Shown here piece after piece: positions 1-26,100 of a stretch of DNA of 64,000 bases (position 1 is the first letter of the stretch; the number at the start of each line of letters is the position of its first letter). The stretch comes from Candidatus Oxydemutatoraceae bacterium. GTDB lineage: Bacteria; Pseudomonadota; Gammaproteobacteria; Poriferisulfidales; Oxydemutatoraceae. The translations under genes and the position numbers were made by a program. Below the pieces are notes generated by a model that was given only the letters and a program-made list of their open reading frames with translations, made no database searches and was not told the DNA's origin. The stretch is taken from positions 876,769 to 940,768 of the forward strand of contig OZ244779.1 of assembly GCA_965219575.1 (NCBI GenBank). Reading direction: 5' to 3'.

Positions 1-576
1 CGCAAGCACGACCGGGCGTGTATCGCTGCCGACACATTGGCTACGATGGGTGATCTTAAGCAAAGCAGTACTTATGATTTGGCACATGAAAAAATTTTGT
101 GTTATCAATCAAACTATATAGGCATCACCGGTAGCAGTGCGCACGATGTGGTACTCAGAAGCCTGCTCGCGGAAGACAATGCCCGATACGATTTCGGTTC
201 GCGGATGGCTATTTTTGAATCCTTTCGTACGATACACGAGATATTAAAAGAACGTTATTATCTGAACACCAAAGAAGAGGGCGACGGAGAACTACAAGCA
301 CCGTACGAATCCAGCCGTATCGATGCGTTGATTGCAAACCCTTACGGCATATTCGGCGTATTTGCGCTTAGAGAAGTCTGCGTTTATTCAAAATACTGGG
401 CTATAGGTTCCGGTGCCGAGATTGCACTCGGTGCCATGTATGCCTGTTATGACGAACAGCCAGATGTAAAGACTATTGCGCGCATTGCCATCGAAGCAAG
501 TGCCGAATTCAATACTGCCACCGCTTTGCCGATAACAAGCTACACACTACCTCTAGAGACTGTTAGAGCAGAATAG
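1..576 (+). CDS. Proteasome-beta/HslV-like Ntn-hydrolase (BPH-like), 5' truncated by the window edge
   Basis: Frame is open from base 1 (RKHDRACIAADTLATMG...). IAADT near the N-terminus and WAIGSG are typical of the proteasome beta/HslV fold. The catalytic Thr1 would lie upstream of the window. Confidence 0.7.
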   Translation, partial: RKHDRACIAADTLATMGDLKQSSTYDLAHEKILCYQSNYIGITGSSAHDVVLRSLLAEDNARYDFGSRMAIFESFRTIHEILKERYYLNTKEEGDGELQAPYESSRIDALIANPYGIFGVFALREVCVYSKYWAIGSGAEIALGAMYACYDEQPDVKTIARIAIEASAEFNTATALPITSYTLPLETVRAE

Positions 577-6327: not shown

Positions 6328-6909
6328 ATGGCCTTAGGAGGAACAATCATGAATATTTCTTATTTAATCAAAATCCCGGTTCTGTGTTTGTGCGTAGCGG
6401 TTATTTTTGTCGGCACGATGCCGCCTTCCCTATCAATCTCGCCGTTCAACCAACCCGATGTATTGCCGCAATTCCATACTCAAGCGACGGAAGATTGGAT
6501 TAATTCTTCTCCGTTGCGAGTAGAGGACTTAAGAGGAAAAGTCGTATTGGTTGATTTTTGGACTTACGGTTGCTGGAATTGTTATCGTTCTTTTCCGTGG
6601 TTAAATGCTATGGAGGCTCGCTTGAAGGATGAAGATTTTATCGTAATCGGTGTTCACACACCGGAGTTCGATCACGAACGAGACCGACGCAAGGTGGCGG
6701 AGAAAGTCGAGGAATTCGATCTGCACCACCCCGTTGTTATAGATAACGATAGTCTTTACTGGCGGGCTATGCGTAATCGCTATTGGCCGGCATTTTATGT
6801 GGTAGATAAGCGAGGGCGCATACGGCATCGGTTTGTCGGCGAAACGCACGAAGGTACCCGGCGTGCTACGACCATAGAAAAAGCAATAGTTAAACTGCTG
6901 GCAGAATAG
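6328..6909 (+). CDS. TlpA/DipZ-like thioredoxin, membrane-anchored or exported
   Basis: N-terminal hydrophobic segment; GKVVLVDFWTYGCWNC, GVHTPEF and WPAFY motifs. The start may be 6349. Confidence 0.88.
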   Translation: MALGGTIMNISYLIKIPVLCLCVAVIFVGTMPPSLSISPFNQPDVLPQFHTQATEDWINSSPLRVEDLRGKVVLVDFWTYGCWNCYRSFPWLNAMEARLKDEDFIVIGVHTPEFDHERDRRKVAEKVEEFDLHHPVVIDNDSLYWRAMRNRYWPAFYVVDKRGRIRHRFVGETHEGTRRATTIEKAIVKLLAE

Positions 6910-6940: not shown

Positions 6941-7083
6941 GTGACATTGTGCAGAACCGGGGGGCTGTTGAAAAAGTATTTCATACAATGTAGGGGCGGA
7001 CTTGCATGATGCCTTATTAAAAATCAAGTCGTTTTATTCATTTTTTATCTCCTTTTGCGAGTATTGATTTAGGACACAGATGC

Positions 7084-8058
7084 TCAACAATAATTCGTGT
7101 CAAACGGTTGCTTGTGCGTGGTGACCCCGTAAATAATACGCGTGAGCTTATGCGCGCAAGCAACAATAATCTGCTTTTTAGTTAACTCCGGACGGCGGCG
7201 ACTTAATTGGTCGGCAAATGCACGGATGGTTGGGTTATGAACCCGTGCCGAGAGTGCTGCCATAAATAGGAGGGTGCGCAGGTCGGCATTGCCCTGTTTA
7301 GAGATGGGCGTGGGCGATGCGCAGTTGCCGGATTGCTTGTGCTTGGGCGTGATGCCGATATAGGCGGCGAGTTGCTTTGGATGGCGAAACGTATTATCAT
7401 CCAGTACTGCACACAGGGCAGCCGCAGTTTGAGTTCCGATTCCAGGAATGGAACACAGCAACTGGTGAAGCTGTGTGAGGTGCTCGTCTTGAGCGATGAT
7501 TTTGTCCATTGAGGCATTAATCTTATCGATCTGCTTCTCATGGTTCTTCAGGCTAGTGGCTGCCACCTTTTTTTGCTTCGCATCGCGCAGAGTTTTAGCG
7601 CAATTGCTTAACATCGTATGACACTTGACTAATTCCCTACGCCATTTCAGTGCGTCGCGCAAGGCTTGCACAGCCGGTGAGGGCTTTTGCCAATTGTTTT
7701 CAGGCGGGATAGCAAATACGAAGCGTGCGATGATACGCGCATCCACGCGATCGGTTTTACTGCGTATGCCGAGCGAGTCGCGGAATCTAGAGATCAGCAC
7801 CGGTACTGCAACGGTGATTGGATGCCCGGCATCATAGCCGGCCATGCACAGGTCTAGTTCAAGACCGCCGGTCGCCTCAACGCAGATGCGACACTGCTGT
7901 GCGCAGTGTTTGCTCGCCCAAGCTAACAACTGCTTGATGCCTTGGGCATCACTACTAAATTGTTGTTCGGCAAAACTATTATCGGTGAATAGTATAGCCG
8001 CCTCTAAAGTGTCTTTAGAGACATCAACGCCAATCGTGACGGGTTGTTTGTTTTCCAT
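7084..8058 (-). CDS. IS110-family recombinase/transposase
   Basis: RuvC-like DEDD residues D12 (IGVD), E61 (VEATG), D103/D106 (KTDRVD). Tnp domain SIPGIG...LAAYIG...QSG with Ser243. Confidence 0.96.
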   Translation of the reverse strand: MENKQPVTIGVDVSKDTLEAAILFTDNSFAEQQFSSDAQGIKQLLAWASKHCAQQCRICVEATGGLELDLCMAGYDAGHPITVAVPVLISRFRDSLGIRSKTDRVDARIIARFVFAIPPENNWQKPSPAVQALRDALKWRRELVKCHTMLSNCAKTLRDAKQKKVAATSLKNHEKQIDKINASMDKIIAQDEHLTQLHQLLCSIPGIGTQTAAALCAVLDDNTFRHPKQLAAYIGITPKHKQSGNCASPTPISKQGNADLRTLLFMAALSARVHNPTIRAFADQLSRRRPELTKKQIIVACAHKLTRIIYGVTTHKQPFDTNYC

Positions 8059-8109
8059 AATAAATTACTCCATAAGGGTTGGTTAATGAATGAAATACTA
8101 GGTATCAAA

Positions 8110-8320
8110 CACAGTTTAGGAAAGTATGACTACGCCGCCCAAACAGATGAATACGAGATCTAAAGTCCCAAGCTGCCTTTCGAGCTCTATAGTCATAACG
8201 CCGGAGGAGTGCTTCTCATGCAAACAGGCTTTTAATGCCTCGTCCGTCCTACAGCGTGTCTCCTCCGACTTCCTAGGTACTGCATCTACCTAAGCGTTTA
8301 TCTTATATTAAATAAGCCAG
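8110..8320 (-). ncRNA. Bridge RNA of the IS110 element (ends approximate)
   Basis: Two stem-enclosed internal loops (stems 8260-8267/8202-8209 and 8190-8197/8125-8132). They contain segments matching the target (GGACGGAC, TTGCATG) and the donor (AAGGCAGC, ATCTG). Confidence 0.85.
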
Positions 8321-8335
8321 GGTTTAATATATCTG

Positions 8336-8432
8336 TCCGCCCGTAACGCGTTATGCATGGACGATTTATACATTCATTCATCCAATTCATGAAAACCAAC
8401 CCAACCGCCCTGCGCCATTTGATTTTGGTTTC
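8336..8432. repeat. Longer dispersed repeat (MITE/REPIN-like)
   Basis: GCCCGTAACGCGTT...ACGATTTATACATTCAT...ATGAAAACCAA is similar to the reverse complement of 58620-58693. Partial copies occur near 1158-1198 and 19960-20000. Confidence 0.7.
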
Positions 8433-8508: not shown

Positions 8509-9609
8509 ATGTCTCAATCCAAGCGTATTTTGTTGTTAGCCGGCGACGGTATAGGTCCCGAGGTCGTTGCCGAAGCGATCAAGCTGATTAAATGTATGCA
8601 ATCCGAGGGGCATGCGATTGAATATCGGGAGGCGTTAATAGGCGGTGCCGCATACGATGTTCACGATAAACCGTTGCCCGACGAGACACTGGAAGCGGCC
8701 GAGGAATGCGATGCCTTATTGATGGGTGCGGTAGGCGCGCCGCAATACGAAAATCTCGAGCGGGAGTTGCGTCCGGAAAGAGGACTATTAGCCATCCGCA
8801 GGGAGCTGGGCTTGTTTGCCAATTTGCGGCCGGCGTTATTATTCAAACCGTTGGCTACCCGTTCCAGTTTGCGTGCCGAATTGATAGAAGGACTCGATGT
8901 TTTGATAGTCAGAGAGTTGACGGGTGGGATTTATTTCGGTGAACCGCGTGGTTTGCGGATCGATGCCGGAGGCCGTCGCGAGGCTTACAACACGATGATA
9001 TATAGCGAGGATGAAATAGAGCGTATTGCGCGTATTGCCTACGAGGCGGCACAGTTGCGCAACGGTCGCTTGTGTTCGGTTGACAAGGCGAATGTGTTGG
9101 AGGTGTCCGAGTTGTGGCGCGAGGTCGTAGAGCGTTTGGCATCCGATTATCCCGATGTAACACTCAGCCATCTTTATGTGGACAATGCGGCGATGCAGTT
9201 GGTGCGCGCACCCAAGCAGTTCGATGTGATAGTTACTTCTAATTTATTCGGTGACATATTGTCGGATTTAGCGGCGATGTTGACCGGATCTATCGGCATG
9301 TTGCCGTCGGCATCTTTGAATCAATCGGGTAAGGGACTGTACGAGCCGGTGCACGGTTCGGCACCCGATATAGCGGGACAAGGGCGCGCCAATCCACTGG
9401 CCGCAATTCTATCGTTGGCAATGCTATTGCGCTATTCTTTGGATATGCTACAGTCGGCGAAGCGCATCGAGCAAGCGGTTGCGCTCGCCGTAGAGACCCA
9501 TCGCACACCCGATATCGCCGCTGCGGATAAAGCCGTATCGACTACCGAGTTGGGTGATGCCGTAGTGCGATATTACGATGAACTCGGATACAATGATACG
9601 CTCGGCTAA
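8509..9609 (+). CDS. leuB: 3-isopropylmalate dehydrogenase
   Basis: [33 protein letters not shown] and [12 protein letters not shown] motifs. Confidence 0.97.
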
Positions 9610-23100: not shown

Positions 23101-26100
23101 AGTATTCATACCTTCCAATAGCCTGACCGGTTGCTCGGGAATACCGCTCAGCGTCGGTGGTGCGTTGACACGCACCGACAAAGCCGCACTGTCGCTTAGC
23201 CCGTTACTATCCTTCGCAATGAAAGTCACCGTTGCCACACCACTTCGCTCGGCACTCAGTACGAAGCGTATACTCATATCGGTCGTTATATCGGCAACTT
23301 GCATCGGCACCACCGACACAATGGTTCGGCTCGACGACATTGCCGTCAATGTAACAACATCGTTCAAATTGAAGTTGCTGTCCGCAACCGAGACGACGAT
23401 ATGCGCCGTGCTATCGAGCGGTAGTGTCTGCATTGTTGACGGTGTCAGTGTAATCGTCGGTGCGATGTTCGCTTCCACCTGCACCGCAAATTGTGCCGAG
23501 ACCTGCGAGTTTGTTGCACCTCTGCCGTCGTTGACCGTCACTGTAATTGTCGTATTGCCGGCACCGACACCGACAATCTCAAGCGTGCGCATGGTTCCAT
23601 TGCCACTGGCATTGACCGTTGCAATCTGCATGTCACTGGACTCAACCGCTATCGTTAGGGTATCGTCGGCATTGGCATCGCCCAGCGTCACATTTATCGA
23701 GGTATTCATACCTTCCAGCAGTCTGAGCGGTTGCTCGGGAATACCCTGCAGTGTCGGTGGTGCATTGACACGCACCGACAAGTCGGCACTGTGGCTTAGC
23801 CCGTTGCTGTCTTCTGCGGTAAAGGTAATCGTTGCCACACCACCTTGCAGTGCATTTAGCGTAAAGGTATTAGCCGTATTATCGGTTATGTCGGTAATCG
23901 TCGTCGGCGATGTCACAGACACAATCGTTTCATTCGATGACATTGCCGTCAATGTGATGTTGTCATTATCGCCATAATTACTATCGACTACCGAGACGAC
24001 GATATTAGCCGTGCTATTGAGCGGTAGCGTTTGCGCGGTTGAGGGTGTCAGCGTAATCGTCGGGTCGGTGTTTGCTTCCACCTGCACCGCAAATTGTGCC
24101 GAGACCTGCGAGTTTGTTGCACCTCTGCCGTCGTTGATCGTCACCGTAATTGTCGTATTGCCGGCACCGACACCGACAATCTCAAGCGTGCGCATAATTC
24201 CGTTGCTACTGGCATTGACCGTTGCAATCAATGTATCATTGGATTCAACTGCTATCGTCAGGGTATCGTCGGCATTGGCATCGCCCAGCGTCACATTTAT
24301 CGAGGTATTCATACCTTCCAGCAGTCTGAGCGGTTGCTCGGGAATACCGCTGAGTGTCGGTGGTGCATTGACACGTACCGACAGGGCGGCACTATGGCTT
24401 AGCCCGTTGCTGTCTTCTGCGGTAAAGGTAATCGTTGCCACACCACCTTGCAGTGCATTTAGCGTAAAGGTATTAGCCGTATCATCGGTTATGTCGGTAA
24501 TCGTCGTCGGCGATGTCACCGACACAATCGTTCGGCTTGATGACATTGCCGTCAGTGTAACAACATCGTTCAAATTGAAATTACCATCCGCGACCGAGAC
24601 GATGATATGCGCCGTGCTATCGAGCGGTAGCGTCTGTGGGGTTGAGGGTATCAATGTAATCATCGGCGCGATGTTCGCTTCCACCTGCACCGCAAATTGT
24701 GCCGAGACCTGCGAGTTTGTCGCACCTCTGCCGTCGTTCACCGACACCGTAATCGTCGTATTGCCGGCACCGATGCCGACAATCTCAAGTGTGCGCATGG
24801 TTCCGTCGCCACTGGCATTGACCGTTGCAATCTGCGTATCGCTGGATTCAACTGCTATCGTCAGGGTATCGTCGGCATTGGCATCGCCTAGTGTCACATC
24901 TATCGAAGTATTCATACCTTCCAGCAGTCTGAGCGGTTGCTCGGGAATACCGCTGAGTGTCGGCGGTGCATTGGCACGCACCGACAGGGCGGCACTGTGG
25001 CTTAGCCCGTTGTTGTCTTGTGCGGTAAAGGTAATCGTTGCCACACCACCTTGCAGTGCATTTAGCGTAAAGGTATTAGCCGTATCATCGGTTATGTCGG
25101 TAATCGTCGTCGGCGATGTCACCGACACAATCGTTTCATTCGATGACATTGCCGTCAATGTGATATTGTCATTATCGCCATAATTACTATCGACTACCGA
25201 GACGACGATATGCGCCGTGCTATTGAGCGGTAGCGTTTGCATTGTTGCAGGTGTCAATGTAATCATCGGTGCGATGTTCGCTTGCACCTGCACCGCAAAT
25301 TGTGCCGAGACCTGCGAGTTCGCTACACCTCTGCCGTCGTTGACCGTCACCGTAATCGTCGTATTGCCGGCACCAATGCCGACAATCTCAAGCGTGCGGG
25401 TAGCTCCGCTGCCACTGGCATTGACCGTTGCAATCAATGTATCATTGGATTCAACTGCTATCGTCAGGGTATCGTCGGCATTGGCATCGTCCAGCGTCAC
25501 ATTTATCGAGGTATTCATACCTTCCAGCAGTCTGAGCGGTTGCTCGGGAATACCCTGCAGTGTCGGTGGTGCATTGACACGCATCGACAAGTCGGCACTG
25601 TGGCTTAGCCCGTTGCTGTCTTCTGCGGTAAAGGTAATCGTTGCCACACCACCTTGCAGTGCATTTAGCGTAAAGGTGTTAGCCGTATTATCGGTTATGT
25701 CGGTAATCGTCGTCGGCGATGTCACCGACACAATGGTTCGGCTCGACGACACGGCCGTCAATGTAACAACATCGTTCAAATTGAAGTTGCTGTCCGCAAC
25801 CGAGATGACAATACCAGTCGTGCTATTGATCGCTAGCGTCTGCGCGGTTGAGGGTGTCAGTGTAATCGTCGGTGCGATGTTCGCTTCCACCTGCACCGCA
25901 AATTGTGCCGAGACCTGCGAGTTCGCCACACCTCTGCCGTCGTTCACCGACACCGTGATCGTCGTATTGCCGGCACCGACACCGACAATCTCAAGCGTGC
26001 GCATGGTTCCGTTGCCACTGGCACTGACCATTGCAACCTGCGTGTCATTGGACTCAACTGCTATCGTCAGTATATCGTCGGCATTGGCATCGCCTAGTGT

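Follow-up and report, generated by a model that had tools for sequence, protein, structure and literature searches.

The minus strand at 7007–8335 of the window, by which we mean the whole 64,000-nucleotide stretch of DNA that was analysed, very probably carries an autonomous IS110-group element with an IS621-type bridge RNA. As part of that whole reading, and with the same high confidence, the natural target of the element is assigned to the loop of a REP-like palindrome, at the 5' edge of that loop (Table 1). The kind of system is already known, and both REP targets and cores other than CT are in print. The statistics obtained from the single sequence are weak, and the decisive evidence for guide function, as far as sequence comparison can provide it, is the natural covariation of the guides with their sites.

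Table 1. Features of the IS110-group element and its insertion site, in window coordinates
Feature	Positions	Strand	Details
Whole insertion sequence, IS110 group	7007..8335	(-)	1329 bp, CA counted at each end, one CA target-derived
Core CA, left copy	8334..8335	(-)	junction gggcgga-CA-gatatat
Core CA, right copy	7007..7008	(-)	junction aaggcat-CA-tgcaag
Recombinase gene, 324 aa	7084..8058	(-)	DEDD residues D12, E61, D103, D106, and S243
Left target (LT) GGGCGGA	8336..8342	(-)	covers most of the REP palindrome's left arm
Right target TGCAA, then G and the right REP arm (GTCCGCCC)	6994..7006	(-)	
-10-like hexamer TATATT, left end	8326..8331	(-)	sequence reading
-35-like hexamer TTGATT, right end	7022..7027	(-)	sequence reading
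5' stem-loop	8272..8294 (IS positions 42-64)	(-)	helix 1: 94.1% of cells paired; 1 double-change pair
Target-binding loop module	8200..8269 (IS positions 67-136)	(-)	single-sequence and alignment folds
Left target guide GGACGGACG	8241..8249	(-)	reads like the top strand of LT and core
Target-loop inner hairpin AGGC-AUUAAAA-GCCU	8226..8240	(-)	alignment fold
Right target guide UUUGCAUG	8217..8224	(-)	complementary to top strand CA-TGCAAG
Candidate handshake dinucleotide AG, target loop	8215..8216	(-)	putative position, by analogy with IS621
Donor-binding loop module	8125..8197 (IS positions 139-211)	(-)	single-sequence and alignment folds
Left donor guide AAGGCAGC	8172..8179	(-)	reads like the right-end terminus AAGGCAT-C
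Donor-loop inner hairpin	8154..8170	(-)	alignment fold
Right donor guide UCAUCUG	8144..8150	(-)	3' five bases complementary to left-end start CAGAT

The element inserts site-specifically around a short core. As the initial annotation of this locus had proposed, the core is CA, which is shared by both junctions and present once in empty sites, and the empty-site comparison indicated insertion without a longer duplication. The window copy is intergenic, lying between ORFs 6328–6909 and 8509–9609, and has a non-coding left end of 277 nt upstream of the recombinase gene versus a right end of only 77 nt. These proportions bear on the alternative that the element belongs to the IS1111 group, with a guide (seek) RNA downstream of the recombinase gene. 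While the two Pfam domains of the protein are the same in that group, the left end here is far longer than the right and the gene is preceded by the structured RNA, and we give an IS1111 assignment almost no credence; according to the pertinent passages of PMC11208160, the IS110 group is recognised by a left-end RNA and IS1111 by its long subterminal inverted repeats.

Seven intact copies of the IS110-group element, 1319–1329 bp in length and with identical ends, were identified in the genome, all seven with open frames. The initial annotation had named other copies at unrelated sites as evidence that would count against its proposal; instead, all seven copies were found to share the palindrome, the position within it and the orientation. 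This target palindrome is GGGCGGA-CA-TGCNAG-TCCGCCC, with insertion at the loop edge, and 295 empty palindromes (no more than one mismatch per arm and a 6-nt loop) were counted in the 2.37 Mb genome. Being short, imperfectly palindromic and repeated hundreds of times, it is rightly called REP-like, as had been suggested. The boundaries of the element are exact: empty palindromes of the form GGGCGGACATGC[A/T]AGTCCGCCC occur across the genome, and one of them has a left flank identical to that of the window copy. Since the stem is palindromic and presents the same left target on both strands, the orientation of insertion and the REP-loop variant that is chosen would be set by the core and the right guide.

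The left end is predicted to fold into a 5' stem-loop and two internal-loop modules, in agreement with the earlier proposal of an IS110-family element with the target-loop/donor-loop layout of IS621, for which the folds and the pairings described below provide in silico support. In the target module, a closing stem of 10 bp and an inner stem of 3 bp are accompanied by a hairpin and two 12-nt loop strands; the donor module likewise has a hairpin and two loop strands, with 9 bp in its closing stem and 5 bp in its inner stem. The closing stems CGGAGGAG/CTCCTCCG (loop 1) and TATGACTA/TAGTCATA (loop 2) were recovered by both the single-sequence and the alignment folds, and the strings that had been reported for the junctions, guides, stems and AGGC/GCCT hairpin were all located at the coordinates given for them. 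The single-sequence fold is modest (z = -2.1; 7 of 200 shuffles fold equally well). The fold and covariation check that had been suggested for the left end was made with 15 left ends aligned by MAFFT, with 44 pairs in seven helices, and recovered the helices: 95.0% of cells were paired, versus 29.6–43.7% with the partners slid, double changes were present at 13 of the 44 pairs, and the covariation score was 0.314 versus 0.201 in shuffles, none of 500 of which reached the observed value. Seven of the double-change pairs are in the target module (helices 2–4, with 97.3, 91.1 and 96.7% of cells paired) and five in the donor module (helices 5–7, with 96.3, 88.0 and 97.3%), and these compensatory changes derive mostly from one deep split, between the lineage of genome G033 and the rest, and so represent few independent events. 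Our own covariance model of the RNA (R1) identified it in 5 of 53 genomes of the order, all belonging to one genus. A search of Rfam 15 (E <= 1), a database that may hold no bridge-RNA family, gave as its sole match a 14-bit hit to psRNA6 in the AT-rich right end, which we regard as spurious.

The loop strands of the two modules contain the candidate guides. In the target loop, GGACGGAC was found at 8249–8242 (minus strand), and against the bottom strand of GGGCGGA-CA the full left target guide forms seven Watson-Crick pairs, one wobble and one A.C mismatch; the right target guide, which includes TTGCATG at 8223–8217, matches at 8/8 positions (seven Watson-Crick pairs and one wobble). In the donor loop, the left guide AAGGCAGC and the right guide (C)AUCUG would recognise the joined ends AAGGCAT-CA-GAT. 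Seven of the eight positions of the left donor guide pair, with the mismatch at left-donor position 7, and a variant with U there (variant D) pairs fully; the first base of the candidate handshake dinucleotide, A, could pair with the T at that same position. The right donor guide forms five contiguous pairs, with ATCTG at 8148–8144. The donor-loop matches are thus shorter and weaker than those of the target loop, and the left guides match the second core base inconsistently (G, A or U versus A).

Chance agreement was assessed with 5000 dinucleotide shuffles of the left end. For the target guides, matches as good as the observed ones were present in 1135 shuffles (left) and 99 (right), and for the donor guides in 542 (left) and 2348 (right); none of the 5000 contained all four together. 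When wobble was allowed, the best left-donor and right-donor matches fell elsewhere than at the proposed guides. As no guide match is rare alone, the single-copy matches were dropped as an argument: they are within chance, and it is the combination, the positions in the fold and the covariation that are beyond it. The frequency of single matches in shuffles would also suit an alternative in which the recombinase protein itself picks the REP hairpin by its structure and sequence and the left end is a promoter and 5' untranslated region, with guide-like strings that are coincidental or passively copied. Such a view is further favored by the target being a perfect hairpin, by the mismatches tolerated in left guides and by an account of ISPpu10, in part of a preprint (10.64898/2026.03.19.712850), in which the target stem-loop adds specificity.

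Natural variation among copies allowed a choice between these explanations. In the genome of the window, the two copies of subfamily A have the right guide UUGCAUG and occupy CATGCAA sites, and the five subfamily B left ends have UAGCAUG, of which four occupy CATGCTA and the fifth, through a G.T wobble, CATGTTA. Guide A is compatible with 52 of 597 oriented REP readings and guide B with 102, and the chance of all seven copies fitting their own guide is ~1.1e-6. On the donor side, the right guide AUCUG occurs with the left end CAGAT and ACCUG with CAGGT, so that, counting from the guide's 3' end, its fourth base (U/C) changes together with the fourth base of the left end (A/G). Twenty-five distinct insertions were tabulated in the same-genus comparison, and these genomes added four more guide variants, among them left guides that follow another REP stem: at GAGAGGG or GGGAGGG stems the left guide becomes UCGAGGGCU or GAGAGGAUU. 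For three right-target types the right guides compensate fully. The F-type guide UAACAUG was at CATGTTA in 10 of 12 rows, and the other two rows were at CATGCTA with one mismatch.

The left target guides are looser. Variants A–D have a fixed A.C mismatch at the third position, the F-type left guide forms five Watson-Crick pairs and one wobble out of nine positions, and variant C (AUGGUAUG) fits its three sites only with the help of wobbles, one of the sites also showing a mismatch. Left guides of the decayed G033 lineage clearly matched their own flanks in two of seven copies (9/9 and 8/9 positions), and the match was not distinct in the other five. Three observations argue against site choice by the protein. 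One-base changes in the guides track one-base changes in both the REP loop and the left-end terminus, within and across genomes; a chimera (L003) that encodes an A-type recombinase (97% identical) has a B-type left end and lies in a B-type site; and the variation clusters in the loop strands, of which there are four, with 20/46 variable columns in guide strands versus 10/101 in the scaffold (Fisher p = 1e-5). Based on these observations we judge site choice by the protein to be highly improbable, and favor guidance by the bridge RNA, alongside which the target hairpin could make a structural contribution.

A separate question is whether the family is RNA-guided and the window copy itself an immobile fossil. 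There are only two A-type left ends in the genome, which differ by ~1%, and no new insertion was seen in contigs from other runs, as might be expected of a fossil. Opposing this are the open frame and intact catalytic residues of the window copy, guides that still match both target and donor, and 47 exact CATGCAA readings in the genome, including the two occupied ones. In addition, the element is absent from the orthologous intergenic region of two same-genus genomes, in one of which an empty REP is present, and its insertion is thus later than the divergence of these species. Weighing these points, we consider a fossil possible yet unlikely. Contigs from other runs also included joints of 7006 to 8334, with two letters that fit either side; the sides of these joints are short (18–35 letters) and may derive from other empty REP copies, and as such we set them aside as a sign of polymorphism at the locus.

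The recombinase has the two domains characteristic of its assignment, PF01548 (N-terminal DEDD RuvC-like; 71.3 bits against a cut-off of 29, 1e-19) and PF02371 (C-terminal Tnp; 87 bits against a cut-off of 21.3, 1.2e-24), and HMMER gave full-length matches to the solved recombinases of ISCro4 (the best, 5.6e-46) and IS621 (3.8e-45). Consistent with the earlier description of intact DEDD and Ser residues, all five align with those of IS621: D12, E61, D103, D106 and S243-G244 correspond to D11, E60, D102, D105 and S241-G242, whose catalytic roles are given in sections of PMC11208158. Identity to IS621 is about one third, as a rough reading of the printed alignment over the full-length span. A protein search of 53 genomes of the order and 400 of the class found no relative between 59% and 36% identity, and the nearest sampled relatives outside the genus, at 34–36%, are about as distant as IS621 and ISCro4. 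Around 20 proteins at 39–91% identity were present in a large protein database, as protein entries alone.

Two further observations concern the history of the RNA. The scaffold is 94–100% identical across elements whose recombinases are only 59–71% identical, and two chimeras show exchange of RNA modules between recombinase lineages directly. In addition, one syntenic locus in four species contains an orphan half-bridge RNA, apparently a derivative retained as a chromosomal gene: a 5' stem-loop and target-loop look-alike with its own TATAAT box and without a donor loop or recombinase, in which the stems are kept through compensatory change and the loops diverge. In the genome of the window the orphan RNA lies at 2280568–2280710 on the plus strand. 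The orphan loci had no match in Rfam, a search of the genome by bridge logic for a target of this RNA gave matches at chance level, and the match of the left loop to its own upstream flank was not significant (247, 1666, 1179 and 980 of 5000 shuffles reach it). An alignment combining IS left ends with orphans (A3) placed the 3' stem strand wrongly, and no model was built on it. We raise as a speculative and rather doubtful proposal that the RNA and termini move as a unit between recombinase lineages and that the orphan is functional in trans with an IS recombinase, rather than a relic; if so, the orphan RNA would steer or dampen insertion by the IS-encoded enzyme.

A plausible course of transposition can be drawn by analogy with IS621. 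The element would leave as a circle, and the joining of its right and left ends across the CA core would create a sigma-70-like promoter (TTGATT, 17 nt, TATATT). In silico, this arrangement exists only across the joined ends, and in the integrated form ATAACG is at the -35 place. The junction promoter would then transcribe a bridge RNA of ~200 nt from the left end, consisting of the 5' stem-loop, one loop that binds the target and one that binds the donor, and recombinase dimers carrying the two loops would pair target and donor. Strand exchange would presumably occur at the CA core through an S243 phosphoserine in a composite DEDD/Ser site, giving insertion without duplication.

The value of the family lies in its being a clean natural data set, with at least six guide variants on a near-invariant RNA scaffold within one small genus. 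Each variant occupies the matching variant of the repeat family, and two variants in one genome split the REP copies between them via single-base guide differences, making this a natural counterpart to laboratory reprogramming experiments. The initial annotation had called the system potentially reprogrammable; the natural guide variants support this as a possibility. As a CA-core orthologue about as distant from IS621 and ISCro4 as from its nearest sampled relatives outside the genus, the recombinase is a candidate orthogonal tool. Leads on the evolution and restraint of such elements come from the fixed A.C mismatch in the left guide and the hairpin target, and likewise from the orphan half-bridge RNA and the exchange of RNA modules.

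The comparisons that follow draw on portions of the cited papers. Bridge RNAs are predicted in 85.7% of ISfinder IS110 elements (PMC11208160). With IS621 of Escherichia coli (PMC11208160, PMC11208158) the element shares two protein domains, five catalytic residues and a left-end RNA with a 5' stem-loop and target and donor loops of similar size (a target loop of 70 nt here versus nt 34–98 in IS621, and a donor loop of 73 nt versus nt 110–177). In both, left guides are top-strand-like, right guides complement the top strand and the pairings extend over the core, and both have an 8-nt left donor guide, a circle-junction promoter and a REP target, which here were identified in silico. The element differs from IS621 in its core (CA versus CT), its right target guide (7–8 nt versus 4), a longer linker 5' of the left target guide, its REP family and its host. 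ISCro4/IS622 (PDB 9t56; 10.1101/2025.05.14.653916) has the same architecture, including handshake guides, and, unlike the element, has a CT core, is enterobacterial and has been engineered for human cells (10.1101/2025.05.14.653916). ISPpu9 and ISPpu10 of Pseudomonas putida (PMC12288879, 10.64898/2026.03.19.712850) are likewise multicopy IS110-family elements in which all copies lie in REP or stem-loop intergenic repeats, and ISPpu9 has the non-CT dinucleotide AG at both ends (PMC12288879) where CA is present here. Of the initial claim of a different core and specificity, the CA core and the element's own REP target stand, and its novelty was overstated, given this AG core and the description of REP targets as typical of IS110 elements (PMC11208160). 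The ISPpu9 genome also has unlinked copies of an IS-associated small RNA gene, comparable in this to the orphan locus here, but that RNA, Ssr9, is encoded downstream of the recombinase gene, is not a bridge RNA and is dispensable for transposition (PMC12288879), whereas the orphan here is a 5' stem-loop and target-loop look-alike. Finally, the IS1111-group (seekRNA) elements have in common with the element a DEDD/Ser recombinase and RNA-guided site choice, which here is predicted, with the guide RNA encoded in the right end in that group and in the left end here.

An IS110 element of the IS621 bridge-RNA type was proposed here in the initial annotation, and on the basis of the RNA fold, its guides and their covariation, all of which support that reading, we consider it highly probable that the element is bridge-RNA-guided. 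Its junctions, ORF, Pfam domains and catalytic residues are all in place. The 1329-bp element contains a single long ORF of 324 aa between non-coding ends of 277 nt (left) and 77 nt (right), and the ORF has two domains typical of IS110-family recombinases, PF01548 (1e-19) and PF02371 (1.2e-24). The recombinase matches the solved structures of ISCro4 (5.6e-46) and IS621 (3.8e-45) over its whole length. The DEDD and Ser residues, previously read as intact, correspond by alignment (D12, E61, D103, D106 and S243) to IS621 residues D11, E60, D102, D105 and S241, whose roles have been described (PMC11208158, partial text). IS621 is approximately as distant from the recombinase as the closest relatives that the sampled genomes contain outside the genus, which have 34-36% identity.

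The genome (one contig, 2.37 Mb, 47% G+C) has seven full copies, three with 97-100% and four with ~80% identity to the window copy; all seven have open frames, and the genome contains no other PF01548 gene. Flank alignment revealed that every copy begins after GGGCGGA and stops before TGC[A/T]AG (TGTTAG in one case) followed by TCCGCCC, with CA at both junctions. Removal of the element plus one CA restores a palindrome, GGGCGGAC-ATGCNA-GTCCGCCC, of which there are 295 in the genome (one mismatch or fewer per arm), mainly with the loops ATGTTA (58), ACACAG (51), ATGCAA (44), ATGCCA (37), ATGCTA (37) and ATATAA (31). The left flank of the window copy was also found on one empty palindrome copy. 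Based on the flanks of the seven copies and the empty palindromes, insertion is at the 5' loop edge of a REP-like repeat, with a CA core and always in a single orientation; no copy was at an unrelated site. The genes flanking the element are adjacent in three same-genus genomes that do not have it, and the orthologous intergenic region was examined in two same-genus genomes, both without the element: one had no REP there, and the other had an empty REP of the type found in that genome. In the L002 insertion, the right arm GTCCGTCC would pair with a left arm carrying the A that the left target guide has at window 8247. Upstream of a leuB-like gene in genome G034, a REP loop is occupied, at the same CATG, by a different short element (L060) bounded by terminal inverted repeats TGGGACTGTTGAAAAA...TTTTTCAACAGTCCCA, and a CTGTTGAAAAAGTA motif adjoins many REP copies in the window's own genome too; on these grounds, the REPs form part of larger composite repeats, and their insertion site is shared with a second element.

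Both closing stems claimed from the sequence were recovered by a single-sequence fold, with a modest z of -2.1. A consensus fold of nine distinct left ends from four genomes gave a 5' stem-loop and two modules, with two single strands of 10-12 nt remaining in each module, which is the layout of the IS621 bridge RNA: a 5' stem-loop, a target-binding loop (nt 34-98) and a donor-binding loop (nt 110-177), each loop with a stem, left guide, stem-loop and right guide in order (PMC11208158, partial text). The nine left ends are 95% identical and therefore carry little information on helices. With a covariance model built on the first half of the RNA, a diverged lineage, decayed for the most part, was found in a fifth genome of this genus (G033), and the helices were evaluated in a MAFFT alignment of 15 left ends made without fitting to the structure. 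For the 44 proposed pairs, 95.0% of cells were paired versus 29.6-43.7% with partners slid by 1-3 columns, and the covariation score was 0.314 versus 0.201 in shuffles (reached by 0 of 500). Both sides had changed at 13 of the 44 pairs, although these represent few independent events because a single deep split accounts for most of them. Among 53 genomes of the order, matches to the RNA covariance model were confined to this one genus.

Coordinates of the element, its predicted RNA and related loci
Feature	Position	Strand	Comment
IS110 element	window 7007-8335	-	
Recombinase ORF	window 8058-7084	-	
Flanking ORF	window 6328-6909	+	presumably redoxin-like (name read from translation)
Flanking ORF	window 8509-9609	+	presumably isopropylmalate-dehydrogenase-like (name read from translation)
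5' stem-loop	IS positions 42-49 with 57-64		consensus fold
First module	IS positions: stem 67-76/127-136, inner stem 81-83/123-125, hairpin 96-99/107-110		consensus fold
Second module	IS positions: stem 139-147/203-211, inner stem 151-155/195-199, hairpin 166-170/178-182		consensus fold
A.C mismatch, left target guide	window 8247	-	
GAGGCAUU	window 8233-8240	-	5' arm and loop start of target-module hairpin
Right-end terminus AAGGCAT-C	window 7008-7015	-	
Chimera L003	own genome 1384835-1386161		
Orphan half-RNA	G000:C1:2280568-2280710	+	outside the window; also L062 1577-1719 and L008
Derivative L084	G033:C14, ~25000-25200		

By the published rule, left guides read as the top strand and right guides are complementary, core included (PMC11208160, partial text). 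In the window copy, the left target guide GGACGGACG fits GGGCGGA-CA with seven Watson-Crick matches, one wobble and one A.C mismatch, and the right target guide UUUGCAUG fits CA-TGCAAG with seven pairs and one wobble. The left donor guide AAGGCAGC has a single mismatch to AAGGCAT-C, at position 7, which is unusually mismatch-tolerant in IS621 (PMC11208160, partial text), and five bases of the right donor guide pair with CAGAT. The guides of the target and donor loops are present as the initial annotation had them. At the A.C mismatch, every A-D variant has an A against the REP-stem G, which is found in 295 REP copies. Taken alone, these single-copy matches are weak evidence, since they were reached in 1135 (left target), 99 (right target), 542 (left donor) and 2348 (right donor) of 5000 left-end shuffles; all four together were reached in none of the 5000. 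A wobble-tolerant scan scored GAGGCAUU above the proposed left donor guide; its resemblance to the right-end terminus may be due to chance.

The decisive evidence for the predicted guide function is natural covariation. Subfamilies A (which includes the window copy) and B differ at one right-target-guide base (UUGCAUG versus UAGCAUG): both A-type copies are at CATGCAA, and of five B-type left ends four are at CATGCTA and one at CATGTTA (a G.T wobble). Of 597 oriented REP readings, guide A fits 52 and guide B 102, so that the chance of all seven copies fitting is ~1e-6. Similarly, right donor guides AUCUG (A) and ACCUG (B) accompany left-end starts CAGAT and CAGGT, respectively. In a table of 25 distinct insertions across four genomes, UAACAUG elements were at CATGTTA in 10 of 12 rows and at CATGCTA, with one mismatch, in the other two, and a UAGCAUG element of another species was at CATGCTA. 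Where the REP stem is GAGAGGG or GGGAGGG, not GGGCGGA, the left target guide is UCGAGGGCU or GAGAGGAUU. In variant D, the left target guide no longer has its core mismatch, and the left donor guide pairs at position 7 as well. The fit is poorer for variant C (AUGGUAUG), with three sites fitted through wobbles only and one mismatch, and for the F-type left guide (five Watson-Crick matches and one wobble of nine); left guides match the second core base inconsistently. Variable columns number 20 of 46 in the four guide strands versus 10 of 101 elsewhere (p = 1e-5). The fifth genome's decayed lineage has target-loop strands that vary by copy and donor-loop strands that are constant, as the model predicts for moves to different, non-REP sites.

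The 101 non-guide columns of the RNA scaffold are 94-100% identical where recombinases are only 59-71% identical, and left-end conservation ends directly after the second module. L003, a copy in the same genome, is chimeric: its left end is 100% identical to subfamily B, whereas identity to subfamily A is 97-100% across the spacer, gene (97%) and right end. Two copies of a sister genome, L011 and L009, have nearly the same left end, with recombinases 97% and 71% identical to A. Judged from sequence, the chimeras suggest that the RNA module has been exchanged between lineages; strong constraint, such exchange, or both would explain them together with the scaffold-protein contrast.

Several derivatives were also observed. 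In L025 and L034, from the same-genus genomes G034 and G035, a partial extra left end (~77 and ~53 nt) precedes a full element. The joint lies at a CA within the left end (GGAGGAGA-CA and TAGGTAGATG-CA), which looks as if one copy had inserted into another at a poor pseudo-target, with recombination afterwards. L084 is MITE-like and internally deleted: at least ~100 nt from the start of the left end are joined to the final ~25 nt of the right end, and the upstream flank has an 11-nt match (AATGCCAGATA) to the element's left guide loop. Three left-end relics in G036 (L076, L077 and L089) all break inside the target-module hairpin loop, after ...GGCATTA or ...GGTATTA, with unrelated sequence beyond. 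An orphan locus, between a FAD-linked-oxidase-like gene and a small ORF, consists of a 5' stem-loop and a target-loop look-alike with a TATAAT box directly upstream, and has neither donor loop nor recombinase gene. Four species of the genus carry the locus in synteny; its closing stem persists through a compensatory A-U to U-A double change, whereas its loops have almost completely diverged. No target for it was found in the genome, nor significant likeness to its own flank, nor an Rfam match. The locus may be either an ancient relic or an RNA that has been retained.

When the right and left ends are joined, TTGATT lies 17 nt upstream of TATATT; the integrated form has ATAACG in place of TTGATT. 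A circle-junction promoter has been reported for IS621 (PMC11208160, partial text), and its arrangement is that seen here, known from sequence only. Transcription, RNA ends, protein binding and recombination would all be as in IS621, from which we infer them. Insertion into REPs is common among IS110 elements, a bridge RNA is predicted in 85.7% of those catalogued, and some right target guides exceed that of IS621 in length (all PMC11208160, partial text). The different core noted initially stands in that CA is at both junctions, but a core other than CT has precedent, since ISPpu9 has the dinucleotide AG at both ends (PMC12288879, partial text).
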